Notes under the pieces: generated by a model
Told to the model about the DNA's origin: nothing
Database searches by the model: none
Seen by the model: the letters and a program-made list of their open reading frames with translations, nothing else
NCBI RefSeq assembly: GCF_044704955.1
Contig: NC_091981.1
Coordinates: 177,940,001-178,004,000 of the forward strand
Direction: 5' to 3'
Length of the DNA stretch: 64,000 nucleotides
Source of the DNA: Pristiophorus japonicus
Taxonomy: Eukaryota
Position numbers and translations under genes: made by a program
Shown: one piece after another, positions 39,395-64,000 of the stretch
Numbering within the stretch: the stretch's first letter is position 1
How the letters are laid out: every line of letters begins with the position of its first letter

Positions 39395-42300
39395 GAAAAA
39401 GTTAGAGATTTAACAAGTTTTTAAGCAAGTGTAGAGGCAGGGAAAGGGGGGAGGGGAGGAAAGAACAAAAGGGAAGCTCTGTGATTGGGTGGGAGGTAGA
39501 AGAGACTAAGAGACAAAAGGGATAATGGTGCAAAGCAAAAGGAGATGGTAATGGGACAAATTAAGGAACAAAAGATGACTAGATAGGGTTTAAATGGAAA
39601 TGACAGAATCATCAACAGCTGCCATAGGAAAGAGAAAAAACATAATTTTAAAAAAAATAGGGCCAGGGGTTACGGTCTGAAATTGTTGAACTCAATGTTG
39701 AGTCTAAAATATCTCTGATTTTAAGGTTGGAGCTAAAATTTTTCACGATAAAAATAATGGCCGTTCTGCACATGCACAAAAAAAGGGGGGAAAATCGTCC
39801 GTTTTTCATGTGACAGGTGTGCCCACGCATGTGCACTACACTTTCTGGTCTGGATCAGCCATTTTTAAAGACCATTGTAACTTGGAGGAGGTTTCTGAAT
39901 ACTTCCACACAGGAGCTCCAAAACAAAAAATGGAGTGCGAATTGGAAAGGAAAAGGGCCAGGAAGTTCACCCAAGATGCCAATGATGCCCTGGTAGCCAC
40001 TGTGGAAAGTGGATGGCAACAGATTGGCAAGAAAGGTGCTGGTAAACTGAAACCTGCAGCAATAGCTCAATCTTGGGAGCATGTTGCAGAGCAGGTTTCG
40101 TCAATGGGGTCCATCCAGAGGGATGGCAAGCAATGCCGGAAGAAATGGCAGAACTTTTGCCAAGTAGTTAGAGTAAGTAATATTTTTATTTATGCACTAC
40201 CATTACTTGAATTGTAAATGTGATTATCTGTGTGTGCCATGACAGCAGAAGTCCCCTCTTGTTGTGTACATGTAAATAACTGACAAACTGAGCCAGGAGT
40301 AAAGTAACTTAACTTAATTGTGCTTTTATACAACCCAAAATGGAGTCCCAAACCAGCATGAACCAGCATGAGTACAGCAACTGTAAATAGCTCCCGCAGG
40401 TTCCTAATGCCCGTCCAGTGTGCTGTAACAAATAAATAGAGTATGAACAGAACATATTTCCCCCCTTTTTAAAACCACAGTCTATGTACAGACAAAGTCC
40501 TTGAGATAGCCAGGTTGTGTTCTGAAACGCTGAGACCGGTGTGGAGCTTGCGGTGTTTGCTCTAGGTTTTGGTTGGGAAACAGAACGGAGCCTCTGTTCC
40601 ATCTGCTGGTCTCTTCATGCTAGGTTTGGCTGGGGGTTTGAGAATGTCCAGTAGCCAGCGAAGATTCTGCCCAATCATGAGCTCAGCGGGTGTCTTCCCC
40701 GTTACCGAGTGCTTTGTCGAATGGTAAGTGCGGAGAATGGTTTGAACCGCTTCGTCGAATGTTTGGCCTGCTGCGAGGTTGGCTTTCAAACCCACTTTGA
40801 TGACGCAATTAAAATGCTCAACACTTCCGTTGCTTTGAGGATTGTACCGAGCAGTAAAGCGATGCTCGAAAGTATGACGAATGAGGAAATCCGCGAACTG
40901 GTTGAACACAAACTGTGGTCCATTGTCAGTGATGATGACCTCTGGGAGGCCCCACTTCATGAACATACACTGCAGAATAGTGACGTTCGTTGATGAGGTC
41001 ACTGAACTTGTAGCGATTTCTGGCCATTTGGAATGCAGGTCATGTACTACAACAAGGAAACGCTGGTGTTGTGGAGCTGCTTCAACTGGACCGAAGATAT
41101 CCAACTGAAGTTGTTGCCATGGTCTTTGTGGCCATGGAATGGGCTTCATTGACACTAATCGGATGTTTGTGGCCTTTTCGCTCAGATTGCATGCTTCACA
41201 GTGTGAGAGGAACTCCTCAATGTGAGTGTCAAACCCAGGCCACCATATTGAATCGCGATATCTCTGCTTCATGCGGACAATGCCAGGGTGTCCATCGTGT
41301 GCCAATGAGAGAACGCGCTGTTGAAGTGACTTGGGAATTACTGCTCTATCACCACGAGCTAGGCAGCCATCGTTCCAAACGGAAAATTAATCGCGAAGTT
41401 TGTGAAACGTTTTCAGCTCTTCTGGAATTTGCTTAGGCCACTCAGTCTGGAGGAAGTGGCTCACGTGTTGGATCGTAGCATCACCTATGATTTGGTTTTG
41501 AGTTTGTTGCAGGAGACAAGGTTTCTGATGGACTGAGTGATGATCGATGTGACATATGTGTTGTCATCTGTGAACAAGTCAGCACCAGAGTCCGAAACAG
41601 GTGTCGAGCGGCTGAGCATGTCAGCTACGCGGTTGCAACTGCCAGCGATGTACTGTACATCAAAGTTATACTGATGAAGGTGATCTGACCATCGGCTGAT
41701 TCGTAGTGGTCTGTGCCCAGATCCAGTTCTACCGAGTAGCGTAGTTAGCGCTTGGTGATCCATACGGAGGATAAATTTCCTGCCATAGAGGTAGATGTGC
41801 CAGCGTTCACATGCATAGAGGCAAGTGAGAAGCTTTGTGTTCCCCTGTAGAGTATTTACGTTCTGCAGACGAGAGCGGGCGAGAGGCGAAGGCGACTGGG
41901 TGTTCCAGGCCATCAATCCATTGCGAGAGCACAGCACCCATGGCGGTGCCTGATGCATCCGTAGTGGCGTACTTAGTGGCATTCGGATCAAAGAGTGCGA
42001 GGATAGGAGGGCATGTGATTTTCTCCTTAAGCGTGTTGAATGCCTGAGCCTGGGAATCTGTCCATTCCTTGCGCAGCAACTTGCGAAGTGGTTCGGCAAT
42101 GTGCGCGTAGTGCGGGACAAACTTCAGATAGAAGTTGCAAGTGCCGAGGAATGATGAAAGTTCTTTGACGTTGGATGCCTCCTTCATTCGCTGGATTTCG
42201 TCAATGTTGTCAAGCGTTCCCTTGTGCTGTGACTCTGTAGCCCAGAAAGTTTATTTCTCCAGCAGCGAATGTACACTTATCGGCATTAAGTGTAATGTTA

Positions 42301-43117: not shown

Positions 43118-45489
43118 ATCTTCTGAAATGGTGCAGAAGATAGTCCGTAGGACATGCGCGATATTGATACAGACCATCATGCTTCGTGAATGCCATGAGC
43201 GGTTTGCTGTCCTCCGCTAGGGGTATTTGCAGGTAACTGTGGCGCATGCTGAATTTCGTAAAGACTACTGAGCCATAGAATTCTGAAGACAGTTCGTTGA
43301 TGGTAGGAAGCGGATACTTGCCGGGGATGATGGTCTTGTTGACCTCTTTCAGGTCGATGCATAGACGGATCTCCCCATTTTTACGCCAAGCAATGACTAA
43401 GTTCAAGATCCAGGGTGAGGAGTCGATGCTCTCAATAATTCCCTGCGTTCGAGTCGCGTTAATTCTGCGGATACTTGATTGTGAACCGCGAATCGGAATC
43501 GGCAAAGTCATTGCGTAACCGGTTTGACGGAAAGGTCAGTGTGGGGACGATGGCAGAATTTTGTTGTCACTCTAAACCCTGTGAAGATTGAGGGATACTG
43601 TTTATCAAAGTGCACCGTGTACACAGGTGTTGTAAACTTTGAATCCAAGCTTGTTAAAAAGGTCAACACCCATGAGGCTTCGTCCCTTCGTGACATAAAA
43701 GGAAAAGTTCTCCAATGTTATGTCCTTGTAGTATATCGGGACAGATATGACCACCAGTACCTCAATTTTGGAGTCGGAGTACGCATGTAGAACGGAAGTT
43801 GCGGGCTGCAGTTGATAGTGCGTAAAATGGGTTTTGTACACAGCCTCGCTCAATATGGAGACTTTGGCTCCAAGGTCAATGAGGAGGCAGCAGGATGTGC
43901 CGTCAATGTTTACCTCACAATCCTTCAATTTGCCCGAACCGATGTGCGAAATGTCACTAACGGTGTAAACCATACTGGGTTCATCACTATCAGGGTTGTC
44001 TACATGTCGAATATGCTGCGATGAGCGACAGACACTAGCAAAATGGTTCATTTTACCACATGCAGAGCATTTCTTCCCACGTGCAGGGCAGTTAGGACTC
44101 TTTGCTGAATGTGATTTGTCCCCACAGTTAAAGCAGTGGACATTAGCCCCGCGATCCGTAGTGGGTGGCATAGTCTAGCCCTGGGTCTCTGCTGTGATTT
44201 CCGCTTTGGATGAACGCCTTGCACATGGGCTGTAGCTGCAGTCTGCTACACAGGGGGAGCAGGGGATCTGATCGCTTTTGAATCGGAGAGCACTGATTCG
44301 ATTTGGATGGCCAAATTAGGGGTCTAATGTCAATTTATCATTCTCCATTAGCAAGCATTCTGAATGCAAGGGATCGTTGTTTTCTCAATCATTTCCTCTG
44401 TATGTGCTCCAAAGTTACACATAGCAGCCAGTTCAGTTAATGAAATGATGTACTGTTTGATTGGTTCACCATTCCCTTGCGCACTTTGACGAAATTGGTA
44501 TTTCTCCATCATGGTACTTTTCTTTGGTCCAAAATAGTTCTCTAGGGCGCTTACCGTTTTGTCATGGGACTCTGTGTCTTCGATTTGGCCAAAGGCAGTG
44601 GATAAATATTGCACGGCAGCGAGCTGTTGTTTCGTTGTCGCCATCTAACCCACTCGCCGTGATTTAGGTAGAAAAACTTTTTATTCATCTCGGCCACCGA
44701 ATTGGAGGGTCCCTGGGTGTGGAGAGGAAAGCCGGGGAGTGTAGGGAGGTTAATTTGATTCATCCTTGTTGCCAAATTATATTGTGTATGCGTAAATAAC
44801 TGACAAACTGAGCCAGGAGTAAAGTAACTTAACTTAACTGTACTTTTATACAACCCAAAATGGAGTCCCAAACCAACATGAACCAGCATGAGTACAGCAA
44901 CTGTGAATAGCTCCCGCAGAGTCCTAATGCCCATCTGTAAAGTCTCTTATATTCTTAGCAGTTGACGAGACTCGAGTCCGGTGGTAGTATCCAGGCAAAC
45001 TTTGTTGGCTCAGTTACATTCAGTTACATCTTGCAGTTACTAAGAATAAAGTGCACTCTACCGCGTGTTACAGCTTCAGTTATAGTCGTGAACGTGGGGT
45101 CTTCCCATTCCTGATTGGCCCCCCTGCTGTTACTGGGGTCAGTTTGTCGACTCCGGACTGGCCGCTGGTTATGACCCAGCTGTCCATTGCAGATAGCAAT
45201 CGCCTTGGTCATGATGTGATTACCACATCATGCCCCTTCCTCCTGCTGTTCATTGTTTCGCAGCATGTTCCTGTTATCTGGTCGGAACAGTCGCTTAACC
45301 CTGTGACTGTGCAACCACGCTGCAACCTTTTCCATTGTTAGTGAGCACATACACAGCACACAGTTACTCTATAATTATAAATTAATCAAGTCCCAGTTAA
45401 TTAGGTCCCACAATAGTTAATCAGGTCCCACAATCCCCCCTTTGATTCCCTCCTTAGCCTGAATCATAACGCCCCGATTATATATATAT

Positions 45490-56508: not shown

Positions 56509-58659
56509 GAATGTAGGGTTGCGTATATTTCTAGTAGTTGACAAGACTCGAATCCGGTGGTAGTATCCAGGCAAACTTTATTGGCTCAGTTACATTCAGT
56601 TACATCTTGCAGTTACTAAGAATAAAGCGCACTCTACCGCGTGTTACAGCTTCAGTTATAGTCGTGAACGTGGGGTCTTCCCATTCCCTGATTGGTCCCC
56701 CTGCTGTTACTGGGGTCAGTTTGTCAACTCCGGACTGGCTGCTGGTTATGACCCAGCTGTCCATTGCAGATAGCAATCGCCTTGGTCATGATGTGATTAC
56801 CACATCATGCCCCTTCCTCCTGCTGTTCACGGTTTCGCAGCATGTTCCTGTTATCTGGTCGGAACAGCGCTTAACTCGGTGATTGTGCTTTGGCTCCAAC
56901 CACGCTGCAACCTTTTCCATTGTTAGTGAGCACGTACACAGCACACAGCTAGTCTATAATTATAAATTAATCAGGCCCCAATAAATCAGGTCCCACACCG
57001 TCCAGTGAGCTGTAACAAATAAACAGAGTATGAATACAAAACCTCTCTTAAAATTGTTTATTGCCATCTTTGCAGAAAAAGTTGTCCGACAACCACCGAG
57101 AGCAGACGAAAACTGGTGGAGGTCCGGCAAGAATGCACCCACTAACACCTTTGGAAATGAGGGTTGGAGGTATTATTGGTGGCACCTGAAGATCGACCAC
57201 CCATGCAGAAGCTGGGCCAAGGTTGCAGAGAAAGGGCAAGTCCTGCAAAATCCACAATCTGGGTTGGCTCAATGTTAAGTACTGTGTGGGCTACGCTTCA
57301 GTTTATGCGATGTACTTTCCGTAGACTACGCTTCAGTTTATGCGATGTACTATCATTCATTATGGTCCTCCAAATGATTCTACACTATGTGAGCCTACTC
57401 ATGTCACCCTGCCCCCTCCCCTGCTGCTAACCATTTGTCTGTTCTGTTATATTTTGCAGATGTTGCACAGACATCCAATAATGAAGCAGAAGGCCTCGTC
57501 ACCGTGCCACAACCAGAAGTGGATGAGCCTGCTGACCTCAGCTATACTGAAGAAGTTATAGAAGCCGATCAGGACAAGAACGAGAATAAGGAGAAGCAGG
57601 AAAACGACAATATATTTTTTTGGGGGGGTGGGGGAAGGAGGAGGATGAGACGATGACATTACAACTGGAGGTGGTGCAGGCCATGCATGTACCAAGCGCT
57701 TTCGGCAGCTCTATGCGCGAGGGGACATTACATGGTTGTACACACTCTGAGGTTGCGGCGGGTCCCAGTGGGTTGCAGGAAAGCACTCCCTGGGCGACGG
57801 CAGCAGGCCCATCTGCATGAATGAGGAAGAGGACGAGACCTGAACAGCACTCTCCTGAAATGCAGGCTGCATGGGAGGTGTTAGAGCTCATGGGAATGAG
57901 TGGGGAGAGCGTTGAGCTTACCAGATCGCTCTTGGAGGCCATGGGTTGGATCAAAGGAGAAATAGCAGCACTGTCGGGAGGATAGGGAGGGCATGTCGGA
58001 AATAGCTGCTGCAATGTGGGAAGATACCCAGGCTGTTATTGCCCAGCGGCATTTGACAGTATCAAGTGATGCCACTCGCACTCCAATCCCCAGACCAGCC
58101 TCAACAGTCAGTGTGCAGGTTGTTCTACAGGCTGAAAAGTCCCAAGCCGGGCCTTCCGCAGCCAGAGGTTTTCAAGGGCTTCCATTACCGTCTCCTGGGT
58201 CTGTATCCCACCCCAACAAGCGGAGCTCCGTATCCAAGACACTATCAAAAATCTTGGGCTGACCAGGAGTAGGGCGAAGGGCAAGGATAAGGACAAGAAG
58301 TGCGGGTGGCGTAGCGGTGTTTAAATAAGGGGGGCGGGTGGGAAGAGATGGCTGCAGCTGAAGTATGTTTGCTGCTGTTGTTGTTCTTTTGTTGTTGTTT
58401 TGCTGTTCTTTTGTTCTTCTTTTATTGTTATTTAATGATGTTAATTGAAAAGCTTAAAGTTCACTATTACATTGTTTTATTAAAGTTAAGTACAAGTGTA
58501 CAAATGTTCAATAAACTGAAAATTATTTTTTCAACTAAACCAAAATTATGTACATTATTTTTTCAACTAAACCAAACTTAGGTGGTGTCTCATTTGCAGA
58601 ATAACAGGTGGAAATAATCAACATGGTGGGATGCAATGGTCAAACGTGCCGTTCAGCCT

Positions 58660-59837
58660 TCATGCAAAGCGGTGAAGTATCAACTGCTGACGCAAGGCTC
58701 TTGCAATGGCATAACGTCCACGAGGCCTCCTCCGCCGTCGTCCTGCGGGTTGTAGTGGTGGCATGGGTTCCTCTTCCTCCTCATTCTCATCATCAGCCTC
58801 CTCCTCCCCACCCCTCCTCCCTCTCGCCTGAGCTGGTTCTGCAATGTCCTCCAGTGGGAATATCTGTTCCCTCATGATAGCTAAGTTGTGTAGCATGCAG
58901 CACACCACAGTGAACTCACCGACGTGCTGAAGGGAGTATTGCAGGGAGCCTCCAGAGTGGTCCAGGCATCGGAAACGTTGCTTGAGCACTCCAATTGTCC
59001 ATTCGACAATGTTGCATGTGGCTGCATGGCTCTCATTATAGCGATGCTCAGCTTCTGTCTGAGGGTTCCAGAGGGGGGGTCATGAGCCAGGTGGCGAGCC
59101 TGTAACTTATGTCCCCCAGCATCCAGCTCTGCCCCTCTGGCTGACACTCAAACATCTGTGACACACTGCTCTCACGCAAGATGAAAGCATCATGGATTTT
59201 GCATCTACTGCTATGATACGCTGCATATGGTTGCAGACGATCTGCACGTGAGTGGAATCCTTTTGTGTTTCAGTAAACCTCCGGATCATCTAAGGGTGCT
59301 CGCAGGGCGATGTGCATATAGTCAATGGCAGCCTGTACCTTGGGGAAGCCAGCAATTCGTGCAAAGCTTAAAGCCCTCTCATTCTGTGCCTCCCTGGTCA
59401 TTGGGAATTTGATGAAGTCCATCCTGCGTGCAAACAGTGCAACAGTCACCTGGCGAATGCAGCTATGTGTAGCATGCTGCAAGATGCAGCATACGCCCCC
59501 AAATGATGTCGGAGGCATAGAAGGAAAGTGCTGCAGTCACCTTGACCTGGGTGGGCAGTGCAGTCCTCCCGCTTCTAGGCTGTATATCTGCCTTTATGAG
59601 CTGGCATATCTCTGCGACCACCTCTTTTCGAAAGGCCAGAATTCTAACGCACCGTGCCTCAGTCAGGTGCAGGTATGAGCACCTCTCGCTGTAAACTCGT
59701 TCGGGATAAGGCCTCCTCCCCATAAGTCTGCGACCTCTTTGATTACCCAGATAATGCTGCCGAATAAGCCTTCTTCGATGATAAGATAGGACAGCATAAG
59801 CACGCTCCACATATGGCAAAGATAGAATAGCCCCCAT
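58660..59837 (-). pseudogene. Harbinger (HARBI1-like) DDE transposase, disrupted
   Basis: FARIAGFPKVQAAID, LKQRFRCLD..GGSLQY, VVCCMLHNLAI. Confidence 0.9.
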
Positions 59838-60926
59838 TCTTTAAATGTCCTTAACTGTCCTTAAAAACTAATTATAACCTCACACAAAGCTCAATCTGTA
59901 AACACAGCCTTCCCTACAAAAGCTTTAACTCAGCTCCGTTTTCCAAGATGGCGCCTTTGACATTTTACAACTTTGAAAACCTTTTCACACAAAATCCGTA
60001 TCAACACCCAACCTGCAAAGGGTGCCGATCTATAGTGACTTTCTGGAGTCACAGTTGTACCTGTTCTTTTCGGATCAGCCTGGTGTTTTAAAAGTGGACA
60101 TTGCTGCGTCGAAATTGCGGAGAACTAAAAATAGATTCCCATAAAATAAAGTTATTATTTTCTTCAAAGTGGCAATTTAAAAAAATACCAGCTAATTCGG
60201 AGTGTGAGAACACGAGTTAGCTTTAGCGGGCCCACTGTAAACAAACCAGTGATTGGATTTATGTTGAAGAGAATCCAACATGGCGCCGTTATCGCGGATT
60301 TTCATCCGACTCCACCAGGTAAGGAAAGCTTTTTAAAAACAGTATTTAGCACTGTCCTTAAAAATATTCTTATTGGTGAAACTCGCAAAAAATGGAGCTA
60401 AATCGTGGCGAATTTTGGGCCCGAAGTGCTGTTCCTTGAGCTTATGTTGAGTTTCGCTGGAACAGTGTAAGAGGCCAAGGATGGAGAGGTCAGAGTGGGA
60501 ATATAGTGGAGAATTAAAGTGACAGACAACCGGAAGCTCAGGGTCACACTTATCGACAGAACGGAGGTGTTCTGCAAAGCGGTCACCCAATTTGCGTTTG
60601 GTCTCCTCAATGTAGAGGAGACCACATCGTGAGCAACAAATACAATATACGAAATTGAAAGAAATACAAGTAAATCACTGTTTCACCTGGGAGGAGTATT
60701 TGGAGCCCTGGACAGTGGAAAGGGACGTGGTAAAAAGGCAGGTTTGCATCTCTTGTGCTTGCACGGAAAGGTGCCATGGGATGGGGAGGCAGTTTTGGGG
60801 GTGACTGGGGAATGGGTCAGGATGTCGCGGAGGGAGCAGTCCCTTCGGAATGCTGAGAGGGGAGGGGCGAGGAAGATGTGATTGGTGATGGGATCACGCT
60901 GGAGGTGGTGGAAATGGCAGAGGATG

Positions 60927-62250
60927 TGTTGGAAAGTTTAAGGTTATCTCTGGTCACTTTAATAATCAGGATCAACTGTAAAACCAATCTGGTGGATATA
61001 TTGTGTTTAATCAGAGTTTAAGACAGAATATAACACATTAGTTATATAGCAAAAACATACAACCATAACAGGTAGTGGATACCAATCCCGATCGGACAAA
61101 CGGCTGCCGCACGTGAGCAGTTCTCTGGCTCGCAGTCATTTTCTCTGTCTAGAATGGGAACACTCAAAGAGTGTTCGACCAGCTCAACTTCTGTTTTGCC
61201 CTCCCCTCACACCATCTGTGAGAGCAACCTTGAGAAGGCTACCTTTATTCTATTTTTAGGGGTGGGCCTGACCTGGGATATTGACAAGACCTTTTGACCT
61301 AGAGAGGTTCCCCTAAAAACGTAATATTCAACAAGGTTTCTAGTTCTGTGTCTCGATTCCGGAAACAAAGCCCACTCTAAAGATGTCATTTGATTTGGAC
61401 CACATGTCATTCTCTGTTTACACTAACCCAGGGTTTCTTCCTGTGGAAATTGTTTCATCCCTCTTGTCCCTATTCTCTCGGGTACAATCAGTACAAAGCC
61501 TTAGCTCTACCCTTTGAACTATGAGGCCCAAATCATAAAACTGCTTGCTTCCGAGCATTTCTTTTCAAGTATTTTCAACCACTGAACCCACACAGGGTGC
61601 GTCCCTGGCGTTTCAGCACGTACACCACGTCCATGGCCATCACGGTCTTGCGCTTGGCGTGCTCGGTGTAGGTGACTGAGTCCCTGATGACATTCTCCAG
61701 GAAGACCTTCAGCACCGCGCACACCTCCTCGTAGATCAGCCCCGAGATGCGTTTGACGCTCCTGCGGTGAGCCAGGCGGCGGATGACCGGCTTGGTGATG
61801 CCCTGGATGTTATTGTGCACCACTTTGCAGTGCCGCCTGGCTCCGTCTTTGTCCAGCCCCTTGCCGCCTTTCCCTCTGCCCGACAGTTACCTCCTTTATG
61901 ACGTAGCAACATGTTTATGTTAACTCTCAACTTCCATCCATTATCTTCGCCAGCAGTTTTGTTAAGCTAACTTCAAATCCTATCCTTAGCATTATACAAA
62001 AAATACATAAACAAGGTTCAAGTCTTAACTTAAAAACAACAGATAATCGCTTAGCAACAGGGAGATTGTATATAGTGCAAAGATCTATACCTTCCGTAGG
62101 AAACCAAGACATTAGCATTTCTAAGCATTTCTCTGATCCGAAGAGACTTTCCGTCTGCAATTCGAACATCAGAGTTTAAACAGCATTTTTTCCCGTCACA
62201 GTTTTAATCGCATAACCATATACATTTTTAGGCATCCCTGATTTCTAACA
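60927..62250 (-). mobile_element. Solo-LTR-like element (1,324 bp) carrying a histone H4 frame
   Basis: Termini TGTTGGAAA..TTTCTAACA, TSD GATG (60923-26, 62251-54); Penelope is contiguous once it is removed; orientation inferred from ATTAAA sites near 60960-61012 on the minus strand. Confidence 0.82.
61575..61886 (-). pseudogene. H4: Histone H4 reading frame, full length, CTG in place of ATG
   Basis: 312 bp with no indels or internal stops: [34 protein letters not shown]; 19 of 102 residues differ from canonical H4. Confidence 0.93.
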
Positions 62251-64000
62251 GATGATCCGTTGAACGTGGAGGCTGGTGGGGTGAAAGGTGAGGACAAGAG
62301 GAACCCTATCGTGGTTCTGGATGGGAGGGGAAGGGGTGAGATCAGAAGTGCGGGAAATAGAGCAGGCACGGTCGAGGGCCAAAATCAAACACGGTAGAGG
62401 GGAATCCTCGGTTGAGGAAAAAGGAAGACGTATCGGAAGCACTAGTATGGAAGGTGGCATTGTCGGAACTGATACGGTAGAGTTGGAGAAACTGGGAGAA
62501 TGGAATAGGGTCCTTACAGGAAGCGGTGAGGGGATGTGTAGTCCAGGTAGCTGTGTGAGTCAGTGGGCTTATAGTGGATACTGGTCGATAGCCTATCCCC
62601 AGAAATGGAGACGGATAAGTCGAGGAAAGGAAGGGAAGAGTTGGAGATGGACCATGTGAAGGTGAGGGAAGGGTGGAAATTGGAAGCAAAGTAAATGAAA
62701 TGTTTTAGTTCAAGCCGCGAGCAGGAAAAGGCACCGATACAGTCATCAATGTACTGGAAAAAAAGGTGACGCAGGGGACCTGAGTAGGATTGGAACAAAG
62801 AATATTCCACATAGCCCACGAAAAGGTAGGCATAGCTAGGACCCATGCGGGTTCCCATAACAACACCTTTAATTTGAAGGAAGTGAGTGGAGTTGAAGGA
62901 GAAGTTGTTCAATGTGAGAACAAGTTCAGCCAGGTGGAGGAGGATGGTGGTGGATGGGGACTGGCTGGGCCTCTGCTCAAGGCTTCTGTTCTTTCTCTCT
63001 CTTTATTTCTCCTTCTGTACCTGATTTGATTTTGAATTCCTTGCGCTGTTAATTTCACAATGCTTCAACCTGATTGGTTAAGGAGGTACACATAAGGCCC
63101 ATCGTGCTGTGCCGGCTCTTTGAAAGAGCTATCATTTTTGGCAGTACAAGTTCCAAAAGACATTCAGGACTAAAAAGGATTAATCTGTGCTATTTCATTT
63201 CAGTGATGTGTGGCAGTGGTAAAACACTGGCCTTTCCCTGTTTACTCGGGTCCCAGATACCTTGTAGAGGGTGCCACACCATTTCCATCTGCCACATCCA
63301 GCAACAGTGCAGCCCAAAATATTGTTGACATTAAATGGGCCTGGACAAGTCTAACTAACAGTGCCCTGCCACAGGAACGTTTAGGCCAATGTTTGCAAAA
63401 CTATCTTGCAAGTTTCATATCAAGACATCAATTTTACATGAGGGTCTTGAAGTTCGACATTTTAGATTGTTACATCAGTACTACTGTGACAAACTACAGA
63501 GCTTGTGCTAATTGGGAACGCAACTAAAGTTCTCGCAGTCTCTGTTGTGATTAAAGGAAAGATATTGGAAAAGTATTTTTCCAGTTACACGAATTTTAGA
63601 ATTAATATATAAAATGTTAATGCACATTATATATTACTGCAGTATTTTAATTCCTAAGGATTTATATGCTGTATAACATAATAGTTTCTTAATTGAGCGA
63701 ATGGATGGGATTTGTAAATTAACTGCATGCTGCAACAAGCTTGAAATGCCTGGCCCCACATATCCCTGGATTTGGAAATGGGGAGTGAGGGTGAACACAA
63801 AGTTGGAATTGGAACTATTGATATATTTTAAACCAACGTTAAAAAAACATGTGATTATATTTGATAGGAAGTTTTATGGTCTGCCATGGTGTAGGTGGTT
63901 CAGAAATAATGAAAACTATAGGCCCCAGGTTTCTTCAAAACATCTTTCTTTGATATCCAGAATCACATTTTCACCTGCCAGTGCTGAATTCTTTTAAAAC

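Follow-up and report, generated by a model that had tools for sequence, protein, structure and literature searches.

A single decayed histone H4 copy within a solo LTR of Pristiophorus japonicus, probably derived from the mRNA of a host H4 variant gene

We analyzed a 64,000-nucleotide stretch of Pristiophorus japonicus DNA (hereafter the window) that contains a 1324-bp LTR-like repeat inserted into an older retroelement. The repeat and its immediate surroundings comprise the following features:

60431..60926, minus strand: fragment of an older retroelement split by the LTR, without a Pfam match, putatively Penelope-like by motif
60923..60926, plus strand: left target-site duplication of the LTR, GATG
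60927..62250, minus strand (element sense as deduced from linked copies): solo-LTR-like repeat of the Gypsy or ERV type, bounded by TGTT..AACA and flanked by the 4-bp duplication GATG
62251..62254, plus strand: right target-site duplication of the LTR, GATG
62251..62980, minus strand: other part of the split retroelement, putatively reverse-transcriptase-like by motif

A 4-bp duplication is also found in 10 of the 19 other LTR copies with clear ends. Two copies that are linked to internal sequence show a PBS-like TGG directly after the LTR, and on this basis the H4 insert described below is judged to lie in the sense of the element, on the minus strand. No Pfam family was found for six internal frames taken from these two copies. 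Elsewhere in the window, the segments 44782-45412 and 56512-57039 are direct repeats (92-97% identical, 11.6 kb apart) that are probably the LTRs of a separate element, and related sequence is found at 40262-40452. Finally, positions 58663-59079 of the minus strand encode a fragment of a DDE_Tnp_4 (Harbinger-type) transposase (Pfam E 5.5e-13).

Translation of the window revealed a stop-free H4-like frame within the LTR-like repeat:

61575..61886, minus strand: H4-like frame without a stop, with a CTG start, an in-frame TAA directly upstream and 18 amino acid differences from the host gene identified below (the parent)
61836..61838, minus strand: codon R16, a private single transition
61722..61724, minus strand: codon V54 (GTG), common to the parent gene and both of its other copies
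61716..61718, minus strand: codon A56, a private single transversion
61677..61679, minus strand: codon S69, inherited from the parent gene

The earlier note had singled out V54, A56, S69 and R16 as departures from vertebrate H4, and all four are indeed present when the frame is aligned to vertebrate H4. It had also described the H4 as borne by the LTR. This is correct insofar as the frame lies inside the LTR-like repeat, but it is not cargo of the family. In a genome search with the LTR, in which the best 40 of 3441 candidates were scored, the H4 part was covered by the self match alone, and none of the 29 other LTR copies examined showed an H4 match. The matched LTR sides are 1-48 nt apart in 26 of the 28 copies for which both sides were found; of the remaining two, one contains a 111-nt repeat piece and the other an 873-nt gap. 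The H4 of the window is thus an insertion in one copy of a family whose 29 other members examined lack it, and a gene cargo fixed in the LTR family was rejected on this ground. Within the family, the site that corresponds to the insertion (window 61555/61886) varies by 0-12 nt in length across L002-L030, and the 111-nt piece, found in copy L003, is a LINE-like 3' piece placed almost identically to the H4 insertion.

We then asked where the copy comes from. In an H4 DNA search of the genome (best 40 of 521 candidates scored), three loci, L033, L032 and L034, rank above all cluster genes. L033 (G000:C19:14129657, 14.13 Mb) is an intact intronless H4 gene with a TATA box and a histone stem-loop, whose protein differs from canonical H4 by T54V and A69S and by nothing else. 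L032 and L034 are degenerate V54/S69 copies; they share G9E, whereas the parent keeps G at codon 9, and this may be a parallel change, a lost allele or a sign that one copy derives from the other. After 14 of 55 loci had been dropped before tree building (13 duplicates and 1 frameshifted), 41 distinct in-frame H4 loci were left, 38 of which have T54/G56/A69/K16 and three V54/G56/S69/K16. Neither A56 nor R16 occurs in any of the 41.

In the tree, the window copy groups with L033, L032 and L034 against the 38 cluster genes (100/100, with a bootstrap that was not fully settled), and the group persists (100/98) when a second H4 variant from the gene cluster around L033 is added. The window copy and the parent group have 27 columns in common that differ from the canonical majority, 21 of which are missing from all 38 cluster genes, and the window copy extends about 19 nt into the parent 3'UTR. 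The grouping, the shared columns and the shared start of the 3'UTR together indicate that V54 and S69 were inherited from a host gene, while A56 and R16 are private to the window copy. Hence, of the two donors the earlier note had proposed, the variant gene is borne out. Part of its refuting condition, that the residues be private to this copy, holds for A56 and R16 and not for V54 and S69.

A non-host donor, be it fungal, protist or parasite, is the other possibility that had been raised. PDB chains 7wlr_B and 9lox_B do combine V54 with A56, but both keep A69, and the best PDB matches of the window copy are vertebrate-type H4s, in line with its retention of the vertebrate residues V60, N64, A83 and M84. 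Since silent sites and the 3'UTR start are shared with the host gene as well, and the copy groups with that gene at 100/100, we consider such a donor extremely improbable. The substitutions had further been suggested to rebuild the yeast motif EEVRAVLK..IRDSVTY: the residues V54, A56 and S69 are there, but the literal motif is not, because R55 is replaced by C. According to the earlier note, S69 is also the residue of S. cerevisiae H4, a protein that the PDB alignments did not display. The yeast resemblance is in part inheritance from the host variant and in part chance. As to the base changes, the earlier note was right that T54V needs at least two, as V54 lies three changes away from the cluster codon, and that G56A is a transversion. 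Its appeal to CpG decay covers a portion of the changes, as CpG-type transitions account for 8 of the 18 positions at which copy and parent differ.

The window copy is 84% identical to the present-day parent. Of 58 informative columns, it shows the canonical-like state in 25. The parent has letters found neither in canonical H4 nor in the window copy at 25 columns; all of these differences are silent, and 17 are C>T. Our own reading is that the canonical-like columns reflect later silent drift in the parent, since the C>T changes predominate (17/25) and are interspersed. Parent-like and canonical-like columns alternate along the copy, which leaves a block mosaic of variant and canonical H4 unsupported. 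Twenty-five silent and no replacement columns would fit purifying selection on the parent protein, including V54 and S69, since the time of copying; possibly, however, a lost sister paralog was the true donor instead. This leads to an alternative in which the donor was a sister gene of the V54/S69 gene that was richer in GC and has since been lost or is missing from the assembly, or in which the insert is a DNA-templated repair patch. It would accommodate the branching of the window copy below L033, L032 and L034 (97/88), its higher GC3 (0.85 versus 0.68) and the fact that the V54/S69 gene is intronless. Against this, no intact gene closer than L033 was found by DNA and pattern searches, and the insert lies wholly inside the transcribed unit and ends where other retrocopies end. 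We therefore give this alternative an outside chance. Three further candidate donors were rejected: L107 and L110, which bear S69 but are degenerate T54 pseudogenes, and L125, an H4 with five substitutions that is 75% identical to the window copy. A pattern search for an H4 with N64S, V65I and A69S gave 0 matches. L107 (C1:18.31 Mb) and L110 (C3997) represent a degenerate H4 pseudogene that follows tandem repeats of an H4 tail motif (GKGLGKG-like) and occurs twice in the assembly.

Among the 18 residue differences between the window copy and the parent, 16 others besides A56 and R16 are private. The ATG is lost; the junction has CTG, with the in-frame TAA immediately upstream. Several changes are radical, namely G11D, G13D, G41R, R19C and R55C. 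We compared the changes to neutral simulations of 400 runs each, which assumed 20 or 26 substitutions and either included a CpG boost or left it out. The simulations yield 14-19 replacements compared to the 18 residues observed, which at 20 substitutions would, if at all unusual, be on the high side (P about 0.04). The mean BLOSUM score of -0.39 is not unusually mild either (simulated -0.46 to -0.76, P 0.15-0.44). Moreover, changes at non-CpG nondegenerate sites (6/143) are comparable to those at conserved LTR columns (19/677, p=0.42), where the LTR figure is rough because it comes from window-anchored alignments. The private changes thus likely reflect neutral decay, and the copy has the loss of coding function and the neutral decay of a processed pseudogene.

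These results weigh against selection inside the element, which the earlier note had considered, and more specifically against an H4 carried by the LTR family and shaped by selection that preserves its fold. The frame has retained neither stop nor frameshift, and A56 is found in some non-vertebrate H4s while G56A arose in just 0.7-1.8% of simulations. However, 62-80% of the neutral runs are also stop-free, A56 was chosen after the fact among 18 changes, and H4 is present in only one of the LTR copies examined, with no start codon and with changes that look neutral in both number and conservativeness. We regard this explanation as very unlikely.

The boundaries of the insert inform on how the copy arose:

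61556..61885, minus strand: copy of the host V54/S69 H4 gene, probably a retrocopy, comprising the CDS from base 2 of the start codon and about 19 nt of 3'UTR, without stem-loop and without poly(A)
61886..61893, minus strand: 5' junction, LTR letters, 6/7 match to the 5'UTR/ATG stretch of the parent (7/7 in most other LTR copies)
61556..61574, minus strand: remnant of the A-rich 3'UTR of the parent, which at its end shares a short AACG-like overlap with the LTR

As is the case for retrocopies, the insert has an identifiable parent gene and is confined to its transcribed unit. Since the parent gene is intronless, intron loss is no proof of an RNA route. The microhomology at the 5' junction has a 0.3% probability of arising by chance. 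At the 3' junction, AAACG in the parent UTR faces TAACG in many natural LTR copies, an overlap which implies that about 3 nt were duplicated and hardly any LTR sequence was lost. All three copies, those in the window, L032 and L034, end 10-22 nt past the stop codon and thus do not reach the stem-loop. In L034 the copied sequence begins about 30 nt downstream of the TATA box, and a 7-bp duplication is present; an A run is found at the end of L032. In the parent, an AATAAA is located one base past the stop codon and upstream of the histone stem-loop (L033:1819-1830); a short polyadenylated isoform could be the reason for the shared end of the three retrocopies.

A tail is absent and no more than about 3 nt are duplicated, which sets the insert apart from classical LINE retrocopies. 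With tailless retropseudogenes it shares a 3' end in an A-rich single-stranded stretch and a short complementarity to the target, but not the target-site duplication of at least 8 nt described for them in PMC5322556. We favor, at somewhat better than even odds, a route in which a LINE-type reverse transcriptase would have used a nick in the LTR to start synthesis at an internal site of the mRNA, its A-rich 3'UTR ('tailless' retroposition), leaving a duplication of about 3 bp, and in which the 5' end would have been joined through 6-7 nt of microhomology at the start codon.

The competing route, to which we assign a substantial chance that falls short of even, is that the donor mRNA was captured by the reverse transcriptase of the LTR element itself through two R-region template switches, and that the element integrated together with H4 and was then reduced to a solo LTR. 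It concerns the route only and leaves the source of the copy as above. Here, too, the configuration is suggestive: one LTR element flanks the H4 on both sides, the H4 lies in the sense of the element, 6-7 of 7 nt match at the 5' junction, and poly(A) and a long duplication are both missing. The LTR is solo, the ages of the H4 copy and the LTR overlap, and H4 is no less decayed than the LTR. Sense orientation, 5' microhomology and LTR-like age are explained by template switching no less well than by the LINE route, and the same pattern, with a median microsimilarity of 6 bp, is reported in PMC5131818. However, almost no LTR sequence was replaced, and no second H4-bearing LTR was present among the copies scored. 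Furthermore, both sister copies, which lie outside LTRs, share this end point in the A-rich stretch, one of them with a 7-bp duplication, and 5'-truncated LINE inserts show microhomology as well, CR1/L2 duplications being 3-5 bp long according to PMC4245944.

In summary, the window copy belongs to the V54/S69 lineage of the host, is single, has lost its ATG and ends in the A-rich 3'UTR before the stem-loop. We conclude, with a probability of close to nine in ten, that it is a single dead copy of the host T54V/A69S H4 gene in one solo LTR, likely reverse-transcribed from mRNA, and that its other odd residues are likely due to neutral decay. By itself it is an ordinary dead retrocopy, and the parent gene matters more.

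L033 is a non-allelic intact gene encoding a distinct H4 protein. NCBI entries with exactly this protein (four accessions listed) include ones named for Chiloscyllium punctatum and Rhincodon typus, and the UniRef label of the exact protein is Elasmobranchii (23 contigs), a taxon that includes sharks and batoids and thus suggests a ray member. At the sequence level, the identical elasmobranch records and the silent drift described above agree with conservation across species and purifying selection. The three retrocopies moreover imply that RNA of the parent was present in the germline or early embryo at some time. The parent is therefore predicted to be a functional H4 variant of elasmobranchs that is expressed in the germline or early embryo and is under purifying selection.

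The gene is not an orphan, a possibility that was rejected because L033 sits in a cluster of atypical histones (G000:C19:14.02-14.16 Mb; L093, L096, L097, L122-L126). The 290 kb around L033 contain two H2A genes, two divergent H2B genes, several divergent H1-like genes that are long or Arg-rich, and a second H4 variant, but no H3 motif. The second H4 variant (G000:C19:14035255-14035566; L125:255-566, minus strand) is intact, has a stem-loop and differs by S1T, V65I, A69S, K79R and M84L. It is located about 94 kb from the V54/S69 gene, with which it shares S69 without grouping with it in the tree.

If its two helix 2 changes are fixed and the protein is identical across elasmobranchs despite silent drift, the T54V/A69S H4 would be an old vertebrate variant. 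The sequence comparisons point to it as a vertebrate H4 variant, likely of the germline and apparently undescribed: the open-licence PMC and bioRxiv texts contained no description of a shark H4 variant or of T54V/A69S, although it may appear in gene tables that supplement shark genome papers. More tentatively, as a scenario we hold to be possible and clearly less than even, sharks and rays may have preserved a dedicated H4 variant of full length (T54V, A69S) without change from the time they diverged, in a germline histone set encoded in one cluster with atypical H2A, H2B and H1 and the second H4 variant. Nucleosomes built from this set would have an altered H3-H4 packing, and the window would hold an ancient relic of the variant's mRNA, which an LTR reverse transcriptase may have captured. 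The variant is directly testable, and the dated retrocopies provide a built-in control for selection.

Regarding known systems, the window copy resembles the tailless retropseudogenes of PMC5322556, whose screened sources include histone mRNAs, in being an RNA copy without poly(A), with an A-rich internal end and short complementarity to its target. However, those belong to therian L1 and have duplications of 8-35 nt, whereas here at most about 3 nt are duplicated in a shark genome. It equally resembles the products of LTR-mediated template-switch retroposition (PMC5131818), which are flanked on each side by LTR-element sequence, show junction microsimilarity and lack poly(A); in contrast to the cases described there, it lies inside the LTR itself, replaced almost nothing and is a single copy for which no amplification was seen.

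The closest counterpart of the parent gene is H4t of Oikopleura dioica (PMC3156773), which likewise departs from canonical H4 at few positions, A69S among them, and is encoded in a separate group of atypical histone genes. S69 of H4t is buried and faces helix alpha3 (PMC3156773). H4t also has V21I and L22M and is testis-specific, whereas the shark gene has T54V and is known here from its sequence; the two variants likely arose independently. Variants of H4 are called infrequent, with human H4G as an example (PMC8015243; PMC10878826). H4G/H4.7 is, like the shark protein, a sequence variant of vertebrate H4 (PMC8015243). However, H4G shows 85% identity, has a truncated C-terminus, is polyadenylated and is restricted to hominids, whereas the shark variant, at 98% identity, is full length, equipped with a stem-loop and common to elasmobranchs.
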